Below, piece by piece: positions 1 through 9,389 of a stretch of DNA of 14,568 nucleotides; within the stretch, counting starts at the first letter, position 1; each line of letters starts with the position of its first letter. A model generated the notes under the pieces. It was given only the letters and a program-made list of their open reading frames with translations, was not told where the DNA came from and did no database searches. Origin of the DNA: a virus (lineage: Duplodnaviria > Heunggongvirae > Uroviricota > Caudoviricetes); IMG/VR virus record IMGVR_UViG_2537562019_000027. One strand, 5' to 3'. Made by a program: the position numbers and the translations under genes.

Positions 1-467
<467 letters not shown>

Positions 468-564
468 TTAGTTTTTTTATTCGCATAAAGAATATACTTA
501 ATAATATATACAGTAAGAACCATTAGTAACGATAACCCTGCTATCAGCTCAGTGATGTAGATAG

Positions 565-834
565 TCATTGCTTCATCTCCCTTTCCATTTCATCAATGTC
601 AACGTCATCAGGAAGATGGGAGCAATACGCCGCTATACCATGATGATTTATCTCATACCCTTTGAACGTTACCATCTGGCGCGTAATCTCAACTTCGTTC
701 AGGAATCCGTCATCGCATAACTGCCTGGCTATTTTCGATTTGGTCTGGATTATTGGTAGTGCCTGTTCTTTCAAAGCGCATGATATTTGTGCATCCCATG
801 CCTTTTCGAGAATGGCTAATTGTTTTTTATTCAT
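565..834 (-). CDS. Hypothetical phage protein (89 aa), translationally coupled to the helicase gene
   Basis: ORF with ATG overlapping the helicase stop (TGATG at 836-832); no family recognised. Confidence 0.55.
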   Translation of the reverse strand: MNKKQLAILEKAWDAQISCALKEQALPIIQTKSKIARQLCDDGFLNEVEITRQMVTFKGYEINHHGIAAYCSHLPDDVDIDEMEREMKQ

Positions 835-2270
835 CAGAATCCTCCTTTCTTCTTGGACTGCGGTTCCTCGCGTTCACGTCGGCGCATTTCAGCAGACTGT
901 TGGTCTGTGTCATAAATAGCGCCATTTGCCTGAATGCAATACACCGTGCCGGTATTGCCATGACGATTGAGGCGAAGGATTAGTTCGGTTTCACCAGGAG
1001 GAACGCTGTCATCAAAAGCACCTTCACGATGGATCCCCACCCAATAATCGCAATCCTGTTCAATCTGCCCTGTATCTCGTGAGTCACTTGGTAATGGGCG
1101 TTTATTGGTTCGGCTTTCCAGTGCGCGGTTAAGCTGTGTCAGAAGCACAACAACGCAATCAAGCTCTTTGGCAAGGTTCTTCAGTCCTTTGGTGATCATG
1201 CCGTAAGCAAGGTCGTTGCGATCGGCCTTTTCAGCGGTCATTAGTGTCAGGTAATCGACCAGAATCATGCCAACACATCCTTTTTCTCGCTTGATTCGAC
1301 GGCTTTCGCTGACGATTTGAGCCAGAGATAATCCCGGCGTGTCGTCGATGTAAAGCAGGTCGATTTCACTCAAGCGATTGGCTGTTTCGATCGCCCTGTT
1401 GAAGTCACCATCGTAATCACCCTGATAGCCGTCATCAGCGTCATTTGTCGCCGGAAGGTAAAAAATATTCGGGTTAACACCTGACTTCTGTCCTACCAGT
1501 TTTTCCAGTATCTGGTCACCGGGCATTTCAAGGCTGAACATCAGAGCGGGCTTTTTCTCATGCACTGCGCAGTTGATTGCCATCTGGCTGTATAGCGTCG
1601 TTTTCCCCATCTTAGGGCGAGCGCCAATGACAAACAGAGAGCCTTTCACCAGACCTTTCGGTGACAGCATCCTGTCCAGCGATGGGATCCCTGTGCTCAT
1701 TCCCCGTTGTTCGCCTGATGGGTCAAATCGCTTCTCAAGGTCGCTAACCCAGTCTTCCATGACCTCGCCAAATGAGCGAAGGCCGCGACGCGATCCGGTT
1801 TTTGCATGGTCTGTCAGTTGCGTGAAAATCGCCTGAATAGCTTCGTACTTCTGCGTCGCAGTCATTCCGTTGCGGGAATAGAGCAATTCCGTCGCTTCAG
1901 TCATGCGGTTGATGGCGTAGCGTTCCATTGCGGTTTCGCGAACCTGCATTGCATAGGCAACGATGTTTGCGGCGCTCGGCGTGTTCTTTGCGATCTCAGC
2001 GATATAAGCAAAACCGCCAACAGACGCCGTTAACGATTTACGCTCCAGTTCATCGAAAAGCGTCAGGCCATCTACTGGCTTTTGCTCCCGGTGCATTCTG
2101 GTTATTTCTTCGAAAAGGATTTTGTGTGATCGGCTGTAAAATGAATCAGGCTTCAGCATCGCCAGAACTTTCTGGACGCGCTCACTGCTGTCATCATCCA
2201 GAAGCAATCCACCAATCACCGCCTGCTCTGCCTCGATGCTATGGGGCGGCGCATAAAAATTATCGGTCAT
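834..2270 (-). CDS. DnaB-family replicative DNA helicase (P22 gp12-like)
   Basis: 478-aa ORF with Walker A GARPKMGKTT and DnaB-like layout. Start taken as ATG at 2270-2268 (MTDNFYAPP...); the ORF track extends to a GTG at 2285. Sits immediately downstream of the O-like gene. Confidence 0.9.
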   Translation of the reverse strand: MTDNFYAPPHSIEAEQAVIGGLLLDDDSSERVQKVLAMLKPDSFYSRSHKILFEEITRMHREQKPVDGLTLFDELERKSLTASVGGFAYIAEIAKNTPSAANIVAYAMQVRETAMERYAINRMTEATELLYSRNGMTATQKYEAIQAIFTQLTDHAKTGSRRGLRSFGEVMEDWVSDLEKRFDPSGEQRGMSTGIPSLDRMLSPKGLVKGSLFVIGARPKMGKTTLYSQMAINCAVHEKKPALMFSLEMPGDQILEKLVGQKSGVNPNIFYLPATNDADDGYQGDYDGDFNRAIETANRLSEIDLLYIDDTPGLSLAQIVSESRRIKREKGCVGMILVDYLTLMTAEKADRNDLAYGMITKGLKNLAKELDCVVVLLTQLNRALESRTNKRPLPSDSRDTGQIEQDCDYWVGIHREGAFDDSVPPGETELILRLNRHGNTGTVYCIQANGAIYDTDQQSAEMRRREREEPQSKKKGGF

Positions 2271-3150
2271 CGTGTTCACCCTCACGAACTTTCAGGTAGG
2301 TATTATCGTTAAGCAGGAAATCAAATCCCTTTTTGTGCCAGACGGTTCCTCGCTGATGGTTTGGGCGCTCTTCGAACATCCATCGGCAATTTTCGCCTAC
2401 GTATCTCAAATAATTTCTCCAGTCCTGCATCGTGAACCCATGCCCGTCAAGCTGGCGGGTTATCACTCCGGCTTTGCGCCAGAACGTTCGGATCTGGTTT
2501 TTACGCTTGTCATTCAGTGCGCGGATTCTTGGCGCTTCAGGAAGGATTTCGTGGTAAGCATCGACAACATCCTGACAGCTAACGGAAGGTTTTTTCTTGT
2601 CAGACTTTTTGTCTGCTGTGGCACTCTCTAATACGTCAGTATTAGAGATATTATTTATATTATTGTTTATGGACAACCGTTGGACAACCGTTGGACAATC
2701 TCCGCTGAGAGCCTCGCCATTACTGGTGTTTGCGTTGGACAACCGTTGGACAACCGTTGGACAATTTTTTGCCTGAAAATCGTCATATTTAACGATTGTA
2801 AACAGGCTAAATTTCTTCCCCATCGAGCAAATATTAAGCATCCCTTTCGACTCAAAAGTCCGTAATAAGCTCCGAACTTTGTTGTCGGGGATGAATGTTT
2901 CTCTGACCAGCGACGGGCGTCCAGTTATCATCTGACCGCGATCAACAGTTATCGGCCCGATATCCGTATTGACGACAGTAGATTCGTGATTAGCCTTGAG
3001 GATTAAGTGAAGCCAAAGATGTACTGCCTGAGAGTCCTTATAGAGCCTGCTGTCCATAAACTGGCGGTGTATATAGGCATACCCCATACTGGATGCCTCC
3101 TGATGTTGTACAGGGTTATGCCTGTAATCAGCTAACTTAACGACGCCCAT
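2260..3150 (-). CDS. Replication initiator, lambda O-like (iteron-binding), with the origin inside the gene
   Basis: 296-aa ORF directly upstream of and overlapping the helicase gene; contains two clusters of tandem 11-bp iterons plus AT-rich flank, as for lambda ori within O. Confidence 0.75.
   Translation of the reverse strand: MGVVKLADYRHNPVQHQEASSMGYAYIHRQFMDSRLYKDSQAVHLWLHLILKANHESTVVNTDIGPITVDRGQMITGRPSLVRETFIPDNKVRSLLRTFESKGMLNICSMGKKFSLFTIVKYDDFQAKNCPTVVQRLSNANTSNGEALSGDCPTVVQRLSINNNINNISNTDVLESATADKKSDKKKPSVSCQDVVDAYHEILPEAPRIRALNDKRKNQIRTFWRKAGVITRQLDGHGFTMQDWRNYLRYVGENCRWMFEERPNHQRGTVWHKKGFDFLLNDNTYLKVREGEHDDR
2668..2765. repeat. Replication origin iterons: two clusters of 3 tandem copies of GTTGGACAACC, with AT-rich flanks
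   Basis: Tandem copies at 2671-2699 and 2734-2765, separated by about 35 bp; AT-rich stretches at 2641-2670 and 2765-2815. Confidence 0.8.
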
Positions 3151-3298
3151 GTTTCACTCCTGCTTTGGCTAGTCTGTAAACACCAACAAGGCGCTCTGCG
3201 AACGCCCTGTTATTTGCTGCGGCTACCACTAATCCCTCAGGTGAATCAGGGTGTCGAATCTCTTCTTTTTCCTGGTATTTCTTACGACGTTTTGTCAT
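3137..3298 (-). CDS. Small hypothetical protein (53 aa) between cII-like and O-like genes
   Basis: ATG at 3298-3296 preceded by AGGAG at 5-nt spacing; stop just inside the O-like start region. Translation MTKRRKKYQEKEEIRHPDSPEGLVVAAANNRAFAERLVGVYRLAKAGVKHGRR. Not in the ORF track (under 60 aa). Confidence 0.45.
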   Translation of the reverse strand: MTKRRKKYQEKEEIRHPDSPEGLVVAAANNRAFAERLVGVYRLAKAGVKHGRR

Positions 3299-3330
3299 AA
3301 TTACTCCTGTGGATTGATCCAGTAATTCCC

Positions 3331-3627
3331 TCAGAATTGCATATCAATTTGCTTAAAATCCTCGGTGGCGGCCGGGGATTTTTTCTTTGTGATTTCATCA
3401 AGCGCATACTTAAAAGCCCTGCTAATTGGACTGATGTCTGATGCCATTCCGAAAGCACACAAGACCGAAGCAATAAACCGCCAGTCCGTTCTGCTTATCT
3501 TCGATTCATGACAACCAATCATCTTTGCCAGACCGCGCTGAGTAAGCGTTGACAGGTTGATAAGTAAATCTGTTTCAGCGCGATCAACGTCACGCTGTGT
3601 TGGCTTGCTGTAGCTTGCTTGTGCCAT
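3331..3627 (-). CDS. cII: CII-like transcriptional activator (P22 C1 / lambda CII family)
   Basis: 98 aa; C-terminus KKKSPAATEDFKQIDMQF resembles lambda CII ...KKRPAATERSEQIQMEF; located after cro and nutR as in lambdoid phages. Confidence 0.75.
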   Translation of the reverse strand: MAQASYSKPTQRDVDRAETDLLINLSTLTQRGLAKMIGCHESKISRTDWRFIASVLCAFGMASDISPISRAFKYALDEITKKKSPAATEDFKQIDMQF

Positions 3628-3660
3628 TTGTTAATTTTCCTATATTGATATTGAGTTATA

Positions 3661-3685
3661 GCGGCACACCCAATGGATTTGCCGC
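3661..3685 (-). terminator. Hairpin between nutR and cII (tR1-like candidate)
   Basis: Inverted repeat GCGGCA...TGCCGC with 6-bp stems; no clean U-run, so a rho-dependent or weak terminator at best. Confidence 0.3.
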
Positions 3686-3694
3686 TGATGTTTG

Positions 3695-3735
3695 CTCACC
3701 CGGTTAGAGGTGAAAGGCCAGAACTGTTAAAGAGC
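3695..3735 (-). promoter_or_regulatory. nutR: boxA (GCTCTTTAACA, minus strand 3735-3725) and boxB hairpin (3714-3695)
   Basis: boxA matches the consensus and is identical to the nutL boxA; boxB stem TCACC/GGTGA with a loop containing CUAACC, shared with the nutL boxB loop. Confidence 0.6.
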
Positions 3736-3742
3736 AATTTGC

Positions 3743-3928
3743 TTATGCCGCTTGGCGGTAAGCACTTTCTTGATACTTCAGGGCGCCAGCTGTAACGATT
3801 TCCAATCGATAGGCGTCTTTCTCTGGGATAACTTCTTTCCACTGAGAGACTGCTGCATCGCTAATGCCTAGTGCTTTAGCAACAGCACGCTGGGTTCCGA
3901 AGTGGTCAATAACATCTTTTTTGTACAT
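3743..3928 (-). CDS. cro: Cro repressor (P22 Cro-like)
   Basis: 61 aa, MYKKDVIDHFGTQRAVAKALGISDAAVSQWKEV..., which I recognise as near-identical to P22 Cro; divergent from c2 across an operator region. Confidence 0.9.
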   Translation of the reverse strand: MYKKDVIDHFGTQRAVAKALGISDAAVSQWKEVIPEKDAYRLEIVTAGALKYQESAYRQAA

Positions 3929-4008
3929 AGACTCGCTCCGAAATTAAAGAACACTTAAATTATCCACCAAAGGAATCTTAAGTCAAGTTTATTTAAGATG
4001 TCTTAACT
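3929..4008. promoter_or_regulatory. OR/PR/PRM region with P22-type palindromic operators
   Basis: Minus-strand PR: TTGACT (3986-3981), 17-bp spacer, ATAATT (3963-3958), GGAG before the cro ATG. Operator-like palindromes ATTAAAGAACACTTAAAT (3943-3960), around 3969-3989, and ATTTAAGATGTCTTAACT (3991-4008). Confidence 0.7.
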
Positions 4009-4659
4009 ATGAATACACAACTGATGGGTGAGCGTATTCGCGCTCGCAGAAAAGAACTCAAGATTAGGCAGGCTGCCCTTGGCAAGATGGTTGGCGTGTC
4101 TAATGTTGCTATTTCCCAATGGGAGCGATCTGAAACTGAGCCCAATGGCGAAAACCTATTGGCCTTAGCCAAGGCTTTGCAGTGCTCCCCTGATTACCTG
4201 TTGAAAGGAGAGGATAGTCTTTCAAACATTGCCTATCACAGCAGGCATGATCCAAGAGGTTCGTATCCTCTAATTAGTTGGGTAAGCGCAGGATGTTGGA
4301 TGGAAGCTGTAGAGCCATATCATAGGCGTGCAATAGATAACTGGTACGACACAACGGTAGATTGTTCTGAAGACTCTTTTTGGCTCGACGTTAAAGGCGA
4401 TTCAATGACTGCCCCGGCAGGACTGAGTATTCCTGAGGGGATGATTATTCTCGTCGACCCAGAAGTCGAACCACGTAATGGAAAGCTGGTAGTCGCCAAA
4501 CTTGAAGGGGAAAACGAGGCGACATTCAAAAAGTTAGTTATTGATGCCGGTAGAAAATTCCTGAAACCACTCAATCCACAATACCCAATGATTGAAATCA
4601 ATGGGAACTGTAAAATCATTGGCGTTGTCGTTGATGCCAAGCTAGCAAACCTTCCTTAA
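4009..4659 (+). CDS. c2: C2/CI-type prophage repressor (HTH plus LexA-like S24 peptidase domain)
   Basis: 216 aa, MNTQLMGERIRARRKELKIRQAALGKMVGVSNVAISQWERSE...GDSM...K, which I recognise as near-identical to P22 C2; start abuts the operator (leaderless-like). Confidence 0.95.
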   Translation: MNTQLMGERIRARRKELKIRQAALGKMVGVSNVAISQWERSETEPNGENLLALAKALQCSPDYLLKGEDSLSNIAYHSRHDPRGSYPLISWVSAGCWMEAVEPYHRRAIDNWYDTTVDCSEDSFWLDVKGDSMTAPAGLSIPEGMIILVDPEVEPRNGKLVVAKLEGENEATFKKLVIDAGRKFLKPLNPQYPMIEINGNCKIIGVVVDAKLANLP

Positions 4660-4679
4660 GGGGCTTTCGCCCCTTTTTT
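4660..4679 (+). terminator. Rho-independent terminator after c2
   Basis: GGGGC-TTTC-GCCCC followed by TTTTTT immediately after the c2 stop. Confidence 0.75.
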
Positions 4680-4723
4680 ATTTCCCGTTAAAAATCAAAG
4701 ACAAACTAAATTCACGCCCATAA

Positions 4724-4778
4724 AATTAAGTTTTCTTCAAAAATGCACTTGACCAATAAATTAAGAAGTCTTAAATTT
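4724..4778 (+). promoter_or_regulatory. OL/PL: promoter TTGACC-17-TAAATT overlapped by P22-type operator palindromes
   Basis: TTGACC at 4749-4754, TAAATT at 4772-4777; operator-like AATTAAGAAGTCTTAAATT (4759-4777) and AATTAAGTTTTCTTCAA (4724-4740). Confidence 0.6.
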
Positions 4779-4823
4779 AAGCCATCAGCAGGACGCTGGA
4801 AGCCAAACGGAACAGATTGGCAG

Positions 4824-4863
4824 GCTCTTTAACATCGACGGACTCTCAACCTAACCGTTGAGA
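4824..4863 (+). promoter_or_regulatory. nutL: boxA (GCTCTTTAACA, 4824-4834) and boxB hairpin (4844-4863)
   Basis: boxB is TCTCAAC-CTAACC-GTTGAGA, a 7-bp stem with 6-nt loop; lies between pL and N. Confidence 0.65.
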
Positions 4864-4973
4864 CCAGAACTTGAGTGGTTTTGGGGATGGCGCGAATTGC
4901 AGCTGCAAGACAGCGATCGAGAAGATAAGCACCTCGACGCGTCATGCGCCAAAGCCACTTAAAGGAGACCATC

Positions 4974-5279
4974 ATGGTAACCATTGTCTGGAAAGAATCC
5001 AAAGGTACGGCAAAAAGCCGCTACAAAGCTCGCAGAGCAGAACTTATTGCCGAGCGACGCAGTAATGAAGCACTGGCGCGAAAAATTGCGCTAAAGCTCT
5101 CTGGTTGCGTCAGAGCAGACAAAGCAGCATCACTAGGAAGCCTTTGCTGCAAGAAGAAAGAAGAAGTCGTTCGAAAAAATAGAAGTATTTATTACAAAGA
5201 TTCAAACCCGTTAGGAAACAAAATTCATGCAGTCCAAAAAATAAAATTGTACAGTAAACTACCGTACGGTGCTTATTGA
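4974..5279 (+). CDS. N: Antitermination protein N (phi21-type arginine-rich motif)
   Basis: ATG at 4974 with AGGAG 6 nt upstream; N-terminal GTAKSRYKARRAELIAERR is the arginine-rich boxB-binding motif I recall for phage 21 N; positioned after pL/nutL. Confidence 0.8.
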   Translation: MVTIVWKESKGTAKSRYKARRAELIAERRSNEALARKIALKLSGCVRADKAASLGSLCCKKKEEVVRKNRSIYYKDSNPLGNKIHAVQKIKLYSKLPYGAY

Positions 5280-5281
5280 GT

Positions 5282-5620
5282 ATGCTTATGGTGAAAAAGA
5301 CTATTTATGTTAATCCTGACCGCGGACAAAACAGAAAAGTATCTGATAGAGGTCTTACATCTCGAGACAGGAGGAGAATAGCGAGATGGGAAAAAAGGAT
5401 AGCATATGCATTAAAAAACGGTGTAACACCTGGATTTAATGCTATAGATGACGGTCCTGAATATAAAATTAATGAAGAACCAATGGACAAAGTTGACAAA
5501 GCATTAGCAACACCATTTCCTCGCGATGTCGAAAAAATTGAAGATGAAAAATATGAGGATGTAATGCACAGAGTTGTTAATCACGCTCACCAACGAAATC
5601 CAAATAAAAAATGGTCATAG
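5282..5620 (+). CDS. Hypothetical protein (about 110 aa), low-GC moron gene; start uncertain (ATG 5282 or 5288)
   Basis: ORF in an AT-rich segment immediately after N, followed by a strong terminator; weak SD; no family recognised. Confidence 0.45.
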   Translation: MLMVKKTIYVNPDRGQNRKVSDRGLTSRDRRRIARWEKRIAYALKNGVTPGFNAIDDGPEYKINEEPMDKVDKALATPFPRDVEKIEDEKYEDVMHRVVNHAHQRNPNKKWS

Positions 5621-5641
5621 CCCACTTCGGTGGGTTTTTTA
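5621..5641 (+). terminator. Rho-independent terminator
   Basis: CCCAC-TTCG-GTGGG followed by TTTTTT, directly after the stop of the 5282-5620 ORF. Confidence 0.65.
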
Positions 5642-5656
5642 TTGTCTGAACAAATC

Positions 5657-5745
5657 TAATTTACTACCGCAAGCCACGCAGTGAAATGGGTGTGACTTGT
5701 GTTGGTCGCCAGAAAATGAAATTAGGCAGCAAACCACTTATTTGA
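5657..5745 (+). other. Diverged second copy of the N gene 3' end (no start codon); probable recombination remnant
   Basis: In-frame translation YRKPRSEMGVTCVGRQKMKLGSKPLI* parallels the C-terminus of the N ORF (YYKDSNPLGNKIHAVQKIKLYSKLPYGAY*), with nucleotide similarity (CAAAAAATAAAATTGTACAGTAAAC vs CAGAAAATGAAATTAGGCAGCAAAC). Confidence 0.5.
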
Positions 5746-5753
5746 GGTGAGAT

Positions 5754-6224
5754 ATGACAAAATCATGGAGCGTACCTTTTCCTGAATCAGAAACTGAACA
5801 TGATGGAATGCCTGTTTTCTGGAGATTCCAGGCGACAGTTGAAGAAGATGGGATAAAAATATTCGCACTTCAATATATAGCTTTTCATCAGACAGAGCAT
5901 TATGCATGGTTGGTTCCTGCGCATTGGATTGTTGATTTTAAACCAGCACCAAATCAGTGGTTACAGGAATGGAAACAAAAGAGAAATAGATATGCAATTA
6001 AGAAAGTAGCAAAAAATGCAGAAAGATCTTTTGCATTCCCAACGAAGAAACTTGCCATTGAAAGTTTATTGCGCCGGAAGAAATACCATTTAATGAGAAT
6101 CAAACAAGATTTGGCTGTTGTATCAACTCTTGTTGATGGGATGAAGAATATTGATACATCAACACCAGATATTGAATATAACTTTGGGCACAACCAAGAA
6201 ACAGAAAATTGGGTATTTTATTAG
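5754..6224 (+). CDS. Hypothetical protein (156 aa), low-GC moron gene
   Basis: ATG with GAGGTGAG SD; AT-rich codon usage; no family recognised; no obvious transmembrane segments. Confidence 0.6.
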   Translation: MTKSWSVPFPESETEHDGMPVFWRFQATVEEDGIKIFALQYIAFHQTEHYAWLVPAHWIVDFKPAPNQWLQEWKQKRNRYAIKKVAKNAERSFAFPTKKLAIESLLRRKKYHLMRIKQDLAVVSTLVDGMKNIDTSTPDIEYNFGHNQETENWVFY

Positions 6225-6418
6225 TACGAGTAAGCACTGTGTATTCATTCCAACGAGTGAATACACGGAGCAATGTCGCTCGTAACTAAACAGGAGCCGA
6301 CTTGTTCTGATTATTGGAAATCTTCTTTGCCCTCCGATGTGGGGGGCTTTTTATATGCATACCAATAACGCTTCACTCGAGGCGTTTTCGTTATGCAATC
6401 AAACAGAAGGAGCATCCT

Positions 6419-6589
6419 ATGCAACAGTTCGCTATTGCAGGGGCGGCATCGGTTCGCCCTTTCAACCCGATTTTATCGGTACAGCATTCACGAAAAAATA
6501 TTTTAACCGGAGCAGACTTTAAACAACCAAGAATGAAAAGCTTGCTCGAAAAGCTTTGGGATATTTTGAAACAACAAGGCCGTCCATGA
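6419..6589 (+). CDS. cIII: CIII-like protein (FtsH inhibitor family, lambda CIII homolog)
   Basis: 56 aa, AAGGAG SD; MQQFAIAGA...SLLEKLWDILKQQGRP resembles lambda CIII MQYAIAGW...SLLERITRKLRDGWKRLIDILNQPGVP. Confidence 0.7.
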   Translation: MQQFAIAGAASVRPFNPILSVQHSRKNILTGADFKQPRMKSLLEKLWDILKQQGRP

Positions 6590-6744
6590 GTTTTACAGAT
6601 AACTGGTCAGACGAAGAATTCATTCGTCAGATGAAAGAATTAATCGGTAACGAAGGAGATATTCATGTCACTTGCAACCACAGTGAAGGAGAGCAAGTTA
6701 CAGAGACGCATGTACACGCAGAAAGCTCTCTGGTATCGCCATAA
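6586..6744 (+). CDS. Small hypothetical protein (52 aa), in the kil-like position after cIII
   Basis: ATGA start/stop overlap with cIII; MSFTDNWSDEEFIRQMKELIGNEGDIHVTCNHSEGEQVTETHVHAESSLVSP; function inferred only from position. Confidence 0.4.
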   Translation: MSFTDNWSDEEFIRQMKELIGNEGDIHVTCNHSEGEQVTETHVHAESSLVSP

Positions 6745-6843
6745 TGGCGACCGCGAAGGAATGCGGGTATGCCTTAATTTGTCCCGAGTCGAAGTATTAA
6801 ATCAGCGTTATTTCCTTGGGCCGTGTCCATTCTGAGGTGAATT

Positions 6844-7551
6844 ATGGATTTGAATAAATTCGATGAGCCATTCAGCCCTGAAGATATCGAATGGCGAATA
6901 CAGCAAAGCGGTAAAACACGCGATGGCAAGGTGTGGGCTATGGTGCTGGCTTATGTCACGAACCGGGCAATCATGAAACGCCTGGACGATGTTTGCGGCA
7001 AAGCAGGATGGCGCAATGAATACCGCGATATTCCCAACAACGGCGGCGTTGAATGCGGCATATCAATAAAGATTGATTCCGAATGGGTAACCAAATGGGA
7101 TGCTGCTGAAAACACGCAGGTAGAAGCCGTCAAAGGTGGTCGTTCAGGTGCAATGAAGCGCGCTGCCGTTCAGTGGGGAATCGGTCGGTATCTGTATAAC
7201 CTTGAGGAAGGTTTCGCACAAACATCTCTCGATAAAAAGCAGGGATGGCACAGGGCAAAACTCAAGGATGGAACAGGATTTTACTGGCTCCCTCCATCGC
7301 TGCCGGGATGGGCAATACCAGCATCAGATAACAAACCATCACCAGAAAATACCAACCAGAAATCTCCATCGGTTGACTGCGAACAAATCCTGAAAGACTT
7401 CAGCGATTATGCGTCAACAGAAACTGACAAGAAAAAACTCATCGAGCGTTATCAGCGTGACTGGCAATTAATGGCTGGCAACGAGGAGGCGCAGGCTAAA
7501 TGCGTTCAGGTAATGAACATCAGAGTTAACGAACTAAAACAGGCGGCATAA
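6844..7551 (+). CDS. Rad52/Sak-family single-strand annealing protein (phage recombinase)
   Basis: 235 aa with GAGGTG SD; GGRSGAMKRAAVQWGIGRYLY motif is characteristic of Rad52/22-family annealing proteins; sits in the recombination module. Confidence 0.75.
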   Translation: MDLNKFDEPFSPEDIEWRIQQSGKTRDGKVWAMVLAYVTNRAIMKRLDDVCGKAGWRNEYRDIPNNGGVECGISIKIDSEWVTKWDAAENTQVEAVKGGRSGAMKRAAVQWGIGRYLYNLEEGFAQTSLDKKQGWHRAKLKDGTGFYWLPPSLPGWAIPASDNKPSPENTNQKSPSVDCEQILKDFSDYASTETDKKKLIERYQRDWQLMAGNEEAQAKCVQVMNIRVNELKQAA

Positions 7552-8019
7552 ATGTCTCACTTGGACGGAATTATTAAAAGATTCGAGTCCAGCTACAAAG
7601 TTAATGAAACAACAGGTTGCTGGGAGTCTACCTATTCAAAAAACAAAGGAGGATACACAAAATTTGTAGCCTTTGGCGTAACAATGCTTTCTCATCGGGT
7701 TGCTTTTGAGCTTTATCACTCCCCCATTCCATCTGGGAAGATGGTTTGCCACAAATGCGATAACCCATGCTGCGTTAATCCTGAACATCTCTTTTTAGGT
7801 AGCGCGCAAGAAAACATGGACGACAAGATAGCAAAAGGAAGGCATCGTGGAGCCAAGAAAGGTCATGCTCATCATGGTGCAAAATTAACAGAGTGGCAGG
7901 TTATAGAAATTAGGAAAAGACTCTCTGAAAAAGAGAGTCAGTACAAGATAGCAAAAGACATGGGTGTATCTCAATCAATTATAAGCAACATAAAAACTGG
8001 CAAGAGGTGGAGCAAATGA
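7552..8019 (+). CDS. HNH endonuclease (free-standing, homing-endonuclease-like)
   Basis: 155 aa; [26 protein letters not shown] is an HNH motif with cysteine zinc ligands; C-terminal HTH-like tail; coupled to flanking genes by TAAATG and ATGA overlaps. Confidence 0.8.
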
Positions 8020-8522
8020 GTTCTCGCGGGATAAATAAGGTGATTATCCTTGGTCGGGTAGGACAAGACCCGGAAGTTCGATACTCACCATCAGGAACAG
8101 CGTTCGCTAACCTGACAATAGCCACGTCAGAACAATGGCGAGATAAAAATACTGGCGAGCAAAAGGAATTGACTGAATGGCATCGTGTTGCTGTATCCGG
8201 GAAACTGGCTGAGGTCGTGGGGCAGTATGTGAAAAAAGGTGATCAGATTTATTTCGAGGGAATGCTGAGAACCAGAAAGTGGAAAGACCAGTCAGGGCAA
8301 GACCGTTACACAACCGAGGTTCATGTCGGAATTAATGGCGTGATGCAAATGCTTGGCGGCATTGGCGACAGCAAACAACAAGCAGCCAGCAGGCAATCAC
8401 AGAAGCCACAGCAGCAATCATCACCAGCACAACACAACGAACCTCCGATGGATTTTGACGACGATATACCCTTTGCACCAGTAACTCTCCCCTTCCCTCG
8501 TCACGCTATTCACGCAATTTAA
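8016..8522 (+). CDS. ssb: Single-stranded DNA-binding protein (SSB) with a C-terminal extension past the DDDIPF tip
   Basis: OB-fold N-terminus [29 protein letters not shown]..., Gln/Pro-rich linker, acidic tip MDFDDDIPF followed by 15 extra residues ([15 protein letters not shown]); start ATG 8016 with GAGGTGG SD. Confidence 0.9.
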
Positions 8523-8530
8523 GGACTTAC

Positions 8531-9079
8531 ATGAATCACTTAATGGTTGACCTTGAAACAATGGGCAACGGGCCATACGCGCCAGTTATTTCTATTGGGG
8601 CGGTATTCTTTGACCCGAATACCGGAGAAACAGGAGAAGAGTTCTCGGTAAATATCTCGCTTGAGTCATCAATGCGATATCGGGCGCGTCCTGACGCTTC
8701 AACGATTTTATGGTGGATGGAACAGAGTGAAGAAGCCAGAAAATCGCTAACCAGCAACACTCAAGAGCTTTCAACAGCTCTTTCATGGTTATCTGAATTC
8801 ATCATAAAGAACGCTAACCACAAATTCGTTCAGGTTTGGGGGAATGGAGCATCATTTGACTGCGTTATTCTCCGCAACAGTTATTCGCTGACAGGGCAGC
8901 CAGTTCCGTGGCAGTGGTGGAATGACCGCGACGTAAGAACAATCGTCGAGCTTGGAAAGGTAATAGGATTCGACCCTAAGCGAGATATGCCATTCAAAGG
9001 AACTCGCCACAACGCGCTTGATGATGCCATCCACCAAGCCAAATACGTTTCAGCGATCTGGAAAAAGTTAGCTAAATAA
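8531..9079 (+). CDS. DnaQ-like DEDDh 3'-5' exonuclease
   Basis: 182 aa; Exo I MVDLET, Exo II FDC, Exo III HNALDDA; AAGGA SD. Confidence 0.75.
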   Translation: MNHLMVDLETMGNGPYAPVISIGAVFFDPNTGETGEEFSVNISLESSMRYRARPDASTILWWMEQSEEARKSLTSNTQELSTALSWLSEFIIKNANHKFVQVWGNGASFDCVILRNSYSLTGQPVPWQWWNDRDVRTIVELGKVIGFDPKRDMPFKGTRHNALDDAIHQAKYVSAIWKKLAK

Positions 9080-9095
9080 TCAACCGGAGAAAAAC

Positions 9096-9389
9096 ATGCC
9101 AGCGCCTTTGTATGGTGCGGATGACCCGCGCCGCTGTTCCGGCAATTCTGTATCGGAGGTGCTGGATAAATTCAGAAAAAACTACGATCGAATAATGTCT
9201 CTACCGCAGGAAACGAAAGAGGAAAAGGAATTTCGCCACTGTATATGGCTTGCAGAGAAAGAAGAACGCGAGCGAATTTACCAGACATCAATCCGACCAT
9301 TCCGCAAAGCCACATATACCCACTTCCCTGAAATTGACCCGCGCCTGCGTCATTACCGCTCACGCTATGGCGCTATCAGTAATGACTGA
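9096..9389 (+). CDS. Hypothetical phage protein (97 aa)
   Basis: ATG with GGAG SD; tightly packed with neighbours; no family recognised. Confidence 0.55.
   Translation: MPAPLYGADDPRRCSGNSVSEVLDKFRKNYDRIMSLPQETKEEKEFRHCIWLAEKEERERIYQTSIRPFRKATYTHFPEIDPRLRHYRSRYGAISND

Follow-up and report, generated by a model that had tools for sequence, protein, structure and literature searches.

A nun cassette and an HK97 gp45-family gene between N and cIII in the early region of a lambdoid Escherichia coli prophage

Nun of phage HK022, a transcription-arrest and lambda-exclusion factor, is known from solved structures (6ALG, 1HJI) and from GenBank entry X16093. The roles of its C-terminal arrest residues and its mechanism have been described (PMC5386594), and its specificity is for the nut sites of lambda and lambda imm434 (PMC4124055). 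In lambda and P22, the interval between N and cIII carries accessory, replaceable genes (lambda ral, P22 gp17 and sieB of both phages) for restriction alleviation or superinfection exclusion. We analysed a block with two open reading frames (ORFs) situated in this same interval in IMG/VR record IMGVR_UViG_2537562019_000027, a stretch of 14,568 nt (hereafter, the window) that contains the early region of a lambdoid (P22/HK97-like) prophage of Escherichia coli. The block very probably consists of two independent accessory modules, one of them a cassette with the gene nun (ORF1) and the other a gene of the HK97 gp45 family (ORF2, hereafter gp45). The main part of this finding was already known: the structures of Nun are solved, GenBank phage records carry the same annotation, and the gene, its mechanism and its placement after N are found in the literature and in annotated phage genomes, so that there is little new in them. 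Only gp45 is of unknown function.

The nun gene and its cassette

A preliminary description of this DNA, made from its letters alone, had placed two ORFs in a visibly AT-rich block between N and cIII. Both ORFs were found, the first with possible starts at 5276, 5282 and 5288 and its end at 5620, and they are flanked by N (phrog_271) upstream and by cIII (phrog_550) downstream (Table 1). The low GC content was also upheld in a sliding comparison: coordinates 5162–6232 have 36.6 % GC, against 45.5 % for the whole window, which is the second lowest value among 1350 segments of the same size.

The biochemical start of Nun corresponds to the ATG at 5288, whereas X16093 annotates that at 5282. The product of ORF1 is identical in 107 of 109 residues to chain N of PDB entry 6ALG ("Transcription termination factor nun"; E 8e-71), and the arginine-rich motif (ARM) at its N-terminus is identical in all 26 residues to the 1HJI_B peptide of Nun, whose structure was determined as a complex with lambda boxB. 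Additionally, it matches the profile of phrog_5632, "Nun-like transcription termination factor", with an E value of 4e-69. The two substitutions with respect to the HK022 protein in 6ALG, S10R and D63E (mature numbering), occupy conservative positions outside the ARM (residues 20–44) and outside the C-terminal arrest region. Residues 93–109 of the arrest tail are identical to 6ALG, with H93, R94, N97, H98, H100, R102, K106, K107 and W108 all kept. Identity is 100 % with the proteins of mEp235 and mEpX1, annotated as Nun, 98 % with HK022, 95.5 % with HK75 and 93 % with PA28 and a set of Stx1a phages, and the protein is conserved at 93–100 % across 29 phage records. Judged by every sequence-level test of membership, ORF1 is Nun, the HK022-type transcription-arrest and lambda-exclusion factor. 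A scan of Nun against the PADLOC-DB profiles gave no match. Although they share their position with lambda ral, P22 gp17 and the sieB genes of lambda and P22, neither ORF1 nor ORF2 showed sequence or profile similarity to the Ral, SieB or P22 gp17 families in Pfam and PHROG scans, and these same scans recognise gp17 in PA28.

Several observations concern relatives of Nun. In PA28 (NC_041935, 2888–3220), RefSeq annotates only a 45-aa "Nun-like" fragment, although nun is there an intact ORF of the full 110 codons, with 93 % identity to that of the window, and the same under-annotation of an intact nun occurs in a series of Stx1a-converting phages. The segment 5534–5620, which codes for residues 82–110 and thus for the RNA polymerase arrest tail, matches the extreme C-terminus of phrog_12139 (E 2e-4), a PHROG family of 289 aa and unknown function, and Hafnia phage Pocitis76 encodes a Nun relative with 40 % identity. 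Arrest tails of the Nun type may exist in other proteins, or be combined with other RNA specificities.

The limits of the cassette could be established from phage vB_EcoP-611R6, which contains the empty site. In a pairwise alignment, both sequences are collinear up to 5169, diverge from 5170 to 5658, and are collinear again from 5659 into ORF2, which gives exact junctions at 5169/5170 and 5658/5659. Phage 611R6 has an uninterrupted N gene (99 aa, ending ...EEVERKQNRIYYRKPRSEMGVTCVGRQKMKLGSKPLI), with the ORF2 homologue situated 8 bp further on. The DNA of the window is identical to 611R6 N up to 5169 and divergent thereafter, and the resulting N protein is 100 % identical to that of mEp235. 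Inside the cassette there are, in this order, a new C-terminus for N, nun and a terminator. The exact empty site and junctions show that the unit in which nun moves is a cassette of 489 bp, by which the C-terminus of N is rebuilt, a clean example of the remodelling of lambdoid early regions.

Comparison with HK022 gives the same picture from the other side. The match to the window is limited to 5162–5637, with 96.4 % identity, and includes 38 codons of the alternative N end, the ARM for boxB binding, the arrest residues, the 126 bp upstream of nun and the place of the terminator. HK022 differs in that it has no N: there is nothing N-like upstream of the 38-codon relic, whereas nun of the window lies downstream of a working N of phi21 specificity. 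It follows from this relic that nun in HK022 was once placed behind a complete N gene, as in the window. The terminator of nun folds as a hairpin at 5619–5636 plus a U-run (centroid fold of −10.3 kcal/mol), and its stem shows a compensatory change from A:T to G:C in HK022, which supports its function; the strong terminator that had been attributed to the first ORF is thus well founded.

A moron, as defined by Hendrix and Juhala, is an additional gene of deviant composition that is placed between two neighbours and brings a promoter and a terminator of its own. The nun cassette has three characteristics of a moron, an empty site, its own terminator and a deviant base composition (GC 0.36, as in the gp45 module, compared to 0.455 for the window), and, with a promoter such as that known upstream of nun in HK022, the nun module would be a textbook moron.

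Table 1. Features of the block and of its surroundings (window coordinates)
Feature	Coordinates	Strand	Details
C2/cI-type repressor gene	4009–4659	+	
Candidate pL promoter	4749–4777	+	TTGACC-17-TAAATT; consensus match only
nutL	4824–4862	+	boxA GCTCTTTAACA at 4824–4834; boxB hairpin at 4845–4862
N antiterminator gene, hybrid	4974–5279	+	phrog_271, E 5e-31
nun cassette	5170–5658	+	489 bp inside N codon 66; replaces 17 bp of uninterrupted N
Cassette-borne alternative N 3′ end	5170–5279	+	VRKNRSIYYKDSNPLGNKIHAVQKIKLYSKLPYGAY, then stop; live copy, in frame; 37/38 aa identical to the HK022 relic
nun, Nun transcription arrest/lambda-exclusion factor	5288–5620	+	110 codons; alternative upstream ATG at 5282
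Intrinsic terminator of nun	5619–5642	+	Terminator scan; 7-bp GC-rich stem, UUCG loop, U6
Relic of the original N 3′ end	5659–5745	+	IYYRKPRSEMGVTCVGRQKMKLGSKPLI, then stop; in frame (frame-3 translation); near-identical to the 611R6 N 3′ end
Shine-Dalgarno sequence of ORF2	5744–5750	+	GAGGTGA; overlaps the stop codon of the N relic (5743–5745); same in 611R6 with intact N
HK97 gp45-family gene (ORF2)	5754–6224	+	156 aa; phrog_1636, E 1e-111; function unknown
Conserved junction segment	6225–6360	+	12-bp hairpin (6239–6266), second hairpin, terminator (6329–6347) plus U-run
cIII	6419–6589	+	phrog_550, E 1e-22; downstream of the block

Independent modules in a variable slot

Genes nun and gp45 occur independently of each other. 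Phages HK022, mEp235 and mEpX1 contain nun without gp45, and HK97, 933W, H-19B and 611R6 contain gp45 without nun. Among the complete E. coli genomes (n = 5426), nun was found in 221 and gp45 in 598, and in 137 the match covers at least 80 % of window coordinates 4900–6400, comprising the 3′ part of N, nun and gp45. This last stretch is 100 % identical in three complete genomes (O114:H49 90-9280, ETEC-2264 and LR882978), where RefSeq names N, nun and gp45 alike as "hypothetical protein". The block had been regarded as a single inserted cassette bounded by two diverged copies of the N 3′ end. The copies do exist (5170–5279 and 5659–5745), but they enclose only nun and its terminator, with ORF2 outside; likewise, a relative lacking the insert was found in 611R6, but what is missing there is the nun cassette alone, gp45 being a separate element. 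That the block is one horizontally acquired two-gene moron, whose products form an undescribed pair cooperating in defence or anti-defence, is hardly credible in spite of the equally low GC of both genes and of their adjacency in those 137 genomes, in PA28 and in Stx1a phages, given that the N repeats flank nun only, that each gene occurs alone in the phages named above, and that Nun is a known protein that acts by itself with host Nus factors (PMC5386594).

The gp45 module spans 5747–6232, and comparisons among relatives show that this interval is a place of frequent exchange. The sequences of mEp235 and mEpX1 (NC_019708 and NC_019709) have 99.4 and 98.4 % nucleotide identity, respectively, with the window over N, nun, the terminator and the N relic, and their Nun proteins are annotated as Nun-like transcription termination factor. 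However, mEp235 matches the window only to 5746 and again from 6233, with a gene for an Nmad5-domain protein in between, and in mEpX1 the interval between the same flanks is occupied by a DUF5484 gene and a 60-aa ORF. In HK022, BLAST junctions place ca. 25 bp after the nun terminator and then the equivalent of position 6234, with an IS903 copy, absent from the window, a few bases on. Thus, gp45 shows a presence/absence polymorphism: HK022, mEp235 and mEpX1 have the same flanks, but not gp45 between them. In turn, HK97, 933W and H-19B, which lack nun, match from 5692 to 6352 or further. In PA28 and the Stx1a phages the order of N, nun and ORF2 is that of the window, with 94 % identity, and P22 gp17 comes next; phi367 has ral between N and ORF2. 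The occupants of the slot in relatives therefore include ral (phi367), P22 gp17 (PA28, H-19B), the Nmad5 protein (mEp235) and DUF5484 (mEpX1). The preliminary description had identified this pL-proximal position as a slot for exclusion genes, and in this it was right, nun being itself a superinfection-exclusion gene. Its observation is thus confirmed in part, and its interpretation supported in part: the slot and the kind of function were correct for the first gene, and the boundaries were wrong.

On its left side, ORF2 always keeps the 3′ end of an N gene, or a relic of it, directly in front. The 58 bp that separate N from gp45 as a "spacer" in HK97 (2501–2562), 933W (2439–2500) and H-19B correspond to the last 18 codons of an N of the 611R6/phi21 type; since this end belongs to another type of N, the N allele of these three phages must have been replaced upstream of a fixed junction between the N 3′ end and gp45. 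Similarly, a prophage of Cronobacter malonaticus (2977–4477) contains a live P22-type N, an 88-aa Cys/His-rich ORF (3252–3518), the relic of a second N (ca. 3555–3704) and a gp45 homologue. Insertion of small accessory genes at the 3′ end of N seems to be recurrent.

On its right side, the segment between the stop codon of ORF2 and cIII is the fixed junction of the variable slot. All the lambdoid phages compared have its part from 6233 to 6360; in HK022, HK97, mEp235 and mEpX1 the identity is 97–98 %, and the BLAST junctions of HK022, mEp235 and mEpX1 coincide at 6233. This segment is highly structured (minimum free energy of −49 kcal/mol, fold z-score of −4.2); IS903 of HK022 sits inside its first hairpin, and its terminator, the first of the pL operon in the arrangement without nun, is annotated as a putative terminator in HK97. 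An Rfam search of the window found no RNA family.

The HK97 gp45-family gene

The product of ORF2 has 98–99 % aa identity with HK97 gp45, with ST933Wp19 of 933W and with an unannotated ORF of H-19B, all of the same length. The position directly after N, the ribosome binding site (RBS) and the downstream junction are also shared with these three phages, from which the window differs in that nun and its terminator are interposed, whereas in them gp45 comes immediately after N and ahead of the first terminator. Pfam and NCBIfam scans assigned ORF2 to no family, and a PADLOC scan gave no credible match (a single 13-bit hit to Cas1_II, E 0.01). No paper was retrieved in literature searches on HK97 gp45, on its accession numbers or on phrog_1636, with no function reported for any member, and the database names found for the family are all "hypothetical" or "prophage protein". 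Close members of the family are few and come only from Enterobacterales. An exhaustive HMMER search uncovered distant relatives of 135–155 aa and 23–32 % identity, in phrog_13631 and phrog_25384, one of them in Pseudomonas phage 8P; three long "homologues" (P0043, P0045 and P0046) were discarded as artefacts driven by repeats. Homologues are always on the early-left strand, the distant ones often just upstream of xis/int, and beyond xis/int and a DNA methylase (in two related loci) the genomic contexts of the distant homologues revealed no recurring informative neighbour.

An AlphaFold2 model of gp45 built from an alignment of close homologues only had a pLDDT of 55, which rose to 93.7 (pTM 0.80) when the distant homologues were added. 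The model contains a three-stranded antiparallel sheet (residues 19–55), short helices, a 33-residue helix (98–130) and a C-terminal tail with a conserved GHNxETExWxF motif. The protein has acidic N- and C-termini, a basic middle (net charge of +12 over residues 61–120) and seven tryptophans, and its sequence shows no predicted membrane segment, unlike SieB and RexB. The model had no fold match in the PDB, and family profiles compared to PDB sequences gave nothing significant (best E 0.017, a low-complexity coactivator). Against a library of viral structures there were 13 significant matches, all of them to uncharacterised proteins, from phages of Erwinia, Achromobacter, Delftia, Rhizobium, Tenacibaculum and Cellulophaga, several of which we believe to be lytic. 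Residues 79–130 were considered as an AP2/integrase-type DNA-binding domain, on account of a beta-sheet plus helix motif, and this was rejected (hhalign probability of 0.07 %). Profile and structure comparisons, proposed in the preliminary description as a check on both proteins, thus gave a name to ORF1 and provided for ORF2 uncharacterised viral structural relatives only. Of its suggestion that neither protein could be named and that both were candidates for an undescribed accessory function, what stands is the part on ORF2, a catalogued hypothetical protein and a modest lead; ORF1 is the already known Nun.

The arrangement in relatives bears on when gp45 could be expressed. It is situated after N and before cIII also in HK97, 933W and H-19B, and in 611R6 there is no terminator-like site from ca. 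900 bp upstream of N to the terminator downstream of gp45 (none before position 2299). Gene gp45 does not have a terminator of its own, using the shared operon terminator at 6329–6347, and consensus and position weight matrix (PWM) scans did not find a consensus promoter directly upstream of it. Because in the 611R6 arrangement it starts 8 bp after N, with its RBS over the N stop codon and upstream of the first terminator, gp45 is probably an early lytic gene co-expressed with N, in agreement with the early-left strand of its homologues and with its structural relatives in phages believed to be lytic; ancestrally it would have been co-transcribed with N, before the first pL terminator, as an immediate-early gene. 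In the window, the interposed nun terminator would make expression of gp45 dependent on N, that is, on pL transcripts modified at nutL. This placement argues for an early lytic accessory function, which it fits better than a defence gene expressed from the prophage. We infer, tentatively, that gp45 might be a small effector, made early and binding to a protein or nucleic acid of the host, for host take-over or counter-defence. For the family as a whole (phrog_1636, with the distant phrog_13631 and phrog_25384), it is likewise a possibility, although not the expected outcome, that this phage-specific protein of a previously unsolved fold, expressed very early and together with N, represents a new kind of such effectors.

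Two observations speak against an early lytic role. A PWM scan detected a weak promoter-like site (TTTACT-16-TGAAAT) at 5660–5687 that could allow expression of gp45 in the prophage, and low GC together with a presence/absence polymorphism would be expected of a moron as well. If gp45 were an exclusion or abortive-infection gene of the sieB or rex type acting in the lysogen, its transcripts would start at this site, within the N relic, or would have passed the nun terminator. Such a role would agree with its composition, with the presence of exclusion-related genes such as P22 gp17 in the same slot of relatives, and with its abundance in E. coli prophages. Nevertheless, we consider it unlikely, because in the uninterrupted arrangement the candidate promoter lies inside the coding sequence of N, to which gp45 is coupled, and because its structural relatives include phages, believed to be lytic, that have no lysogen to protect. 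The PADLOC result and the lack of a predicted membrane segment, which distinguishes gp45 from SieB and RexB, point in the same direction.

Somewhat more doubtful still is an accessory role for gp45 in the transcription that depends on N, or in the regulation of early genes, through action on RNA polymerase, Nus factors or RNA. The overlap of its RBS with the N stop codon would be consistent with this, as would its strongly basic central helix region and the fact that an N 3′ end, or what is left of one, adjoins it in all the E. coli-type lambdoid phages examined as well as in the Cronobacter prophage. However, the distant homologues are near xis/int or methylase genes with no N nearby, and mEp235, mEpX1 and HK022 lack the gene, the first two while keeping the same or a nearly identical N; mEp235 and mEpX1 presumably grow normally without it. 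An early effector co-expressed with N continues to be our working, if tentative, reading for gp45. The protein constitutes a modest lead, being confidently folded, restricted to phages, adjacent to N in the medically important Stx phages 933W and H-19B, and present in ca. 11 % of the complete E. coli genomes.

Nun in the lysogen and the surrounding early region

The HK022 prophage is said, in the work of King, Madsen and Weisberg in J Bacteriol in 2000, to transcribe nun constitutively from a promoter, PNun, just upstream of the coding sequence, with a transcript that reportedly ends downstream of nun. The 126 bp upstream of nun are 96 % identical between HK022 and the window, and we take 5170–5279 to be, by homology, the region where PNun was mapped. 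A weak promoter just upstream of nun, inside the cassette-borne N end as in HK022, would then lead to constitutive expression of nun in the lysogen, and the transcript would stop at the terminator of the cassette. Nun competes with N for boxB and arrests RNA polymerase, with its C-terminal tail (H98, K106, K107 and W108) wedging into the enzyme and blocking translocation, and a superinfecting phage with lambda-type nut sites would be arrested just downstream of pL and pR. The prophage of the window would, in consequence, probably exclude lambda.

The resident phage would not itself be affected by Nun, since the specificity of its N and of its nut sites is that of phi21. The ARM of N is identical in its 22 residues to the phi21 N peptide of PDB entry 1NYB, the boxB sequences of nutL and nutR are of what we take to be the phi21 type, and a pattern search of the early region found no lambda-type boxB. 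Taken together with the specificity cited at the outset, these data suggest that Nun does not act on the phage that encodes it.

Some points weigh against an active Nun. Consensus and PWM scans found no consensus-like sigma-70 promoter upstream of nun, whose expression in the lysogen is deduced from the 96 % upstream identity to HK022 and from the promoter reported by King et al. in 2000; and S10R and D63E, although outside the ARM and the arrest tail, are changes relative to HK022 Nun that might affect its activity. The result of the promoter scans would be expected if nun were here a silent passenger, with its promoter lost upon embedding in N; alternatively, the protein could be inactive through the two substitutions. 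We regard a silent or inactive nun as very improbable, considering that its ORF is uninterrupted, that the product has 98 % identity with HK022 Nun and retains every functional residue, that the upstream region is so well conserved, that the protein is maintained in 29 phage records and the gene in 221 genomes, and that the terminator is preserved by a compensatory change. If nun is indeed expressed, the 221 of the 5426 complete E. coli genomes (ca. 4 %) with the gene may exclude lambda-type phages by Nun without this being noticed, because RefSeq mostly names nun, like N and gp45, "hypothetical protein"; only in a few of the listed RefSeq E. coli genomes does nun have another name.

The pL operon of the window runs from left to right, on the plus strand. 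The candidate pL promoter is the top sigma-70 match of the region both in the consensus scan and in the PWM scan (score of 11.7). The boxA and boxB of nutL are exact pattern matches, with no boxB expected by chance, and the boxB hairpin is supported by folding. The boxA of nutR is on the minus strand (3735–3725), with a boxB-like hairpin just downstream. Residues 1–65 of N comprise the phi21-type ARM and the shared central part, and residues 66–101 are encoded by the nun cassette.

Comparison among phages shows N to be a mosaic of three parts. The ARM varies, with the phi21 type here and a different one in both 611R6 and phi367; the phages compared have the central part (LARKIALKLSGCVRADKAASLGSL) in common; and the C-terminus is exchangeable, with three types seen, those of the nun cassette, of 611R6 and of P22/H-19B.

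Beyond the block, the minus strand of the window contains genes for a DnaB-type helicase, an O-like protein, cII and cro. On the plus strand, the repressor gene, N and the AT-rich block are followed by cIII, kil and genes for an Erf/Rad52-type annealing protein, an HNH endonuclease, a single-stranded DNA-binding protein (SSB), an exonuclease, Abc2 and a DNA methylase. The HNH_3 homing-endonuclease ORF (7552–8019, plus strand; Pfam E 1e-13) is situated between the Erf/Rad52-type gene (6844–7551) and ssb (8007–8522) and overlaps both neighbours, whereas in mEp235 ssb is directly 3′ of erf. This ORF has the appearance of a mobile HNH element inserted among the recombination genes.

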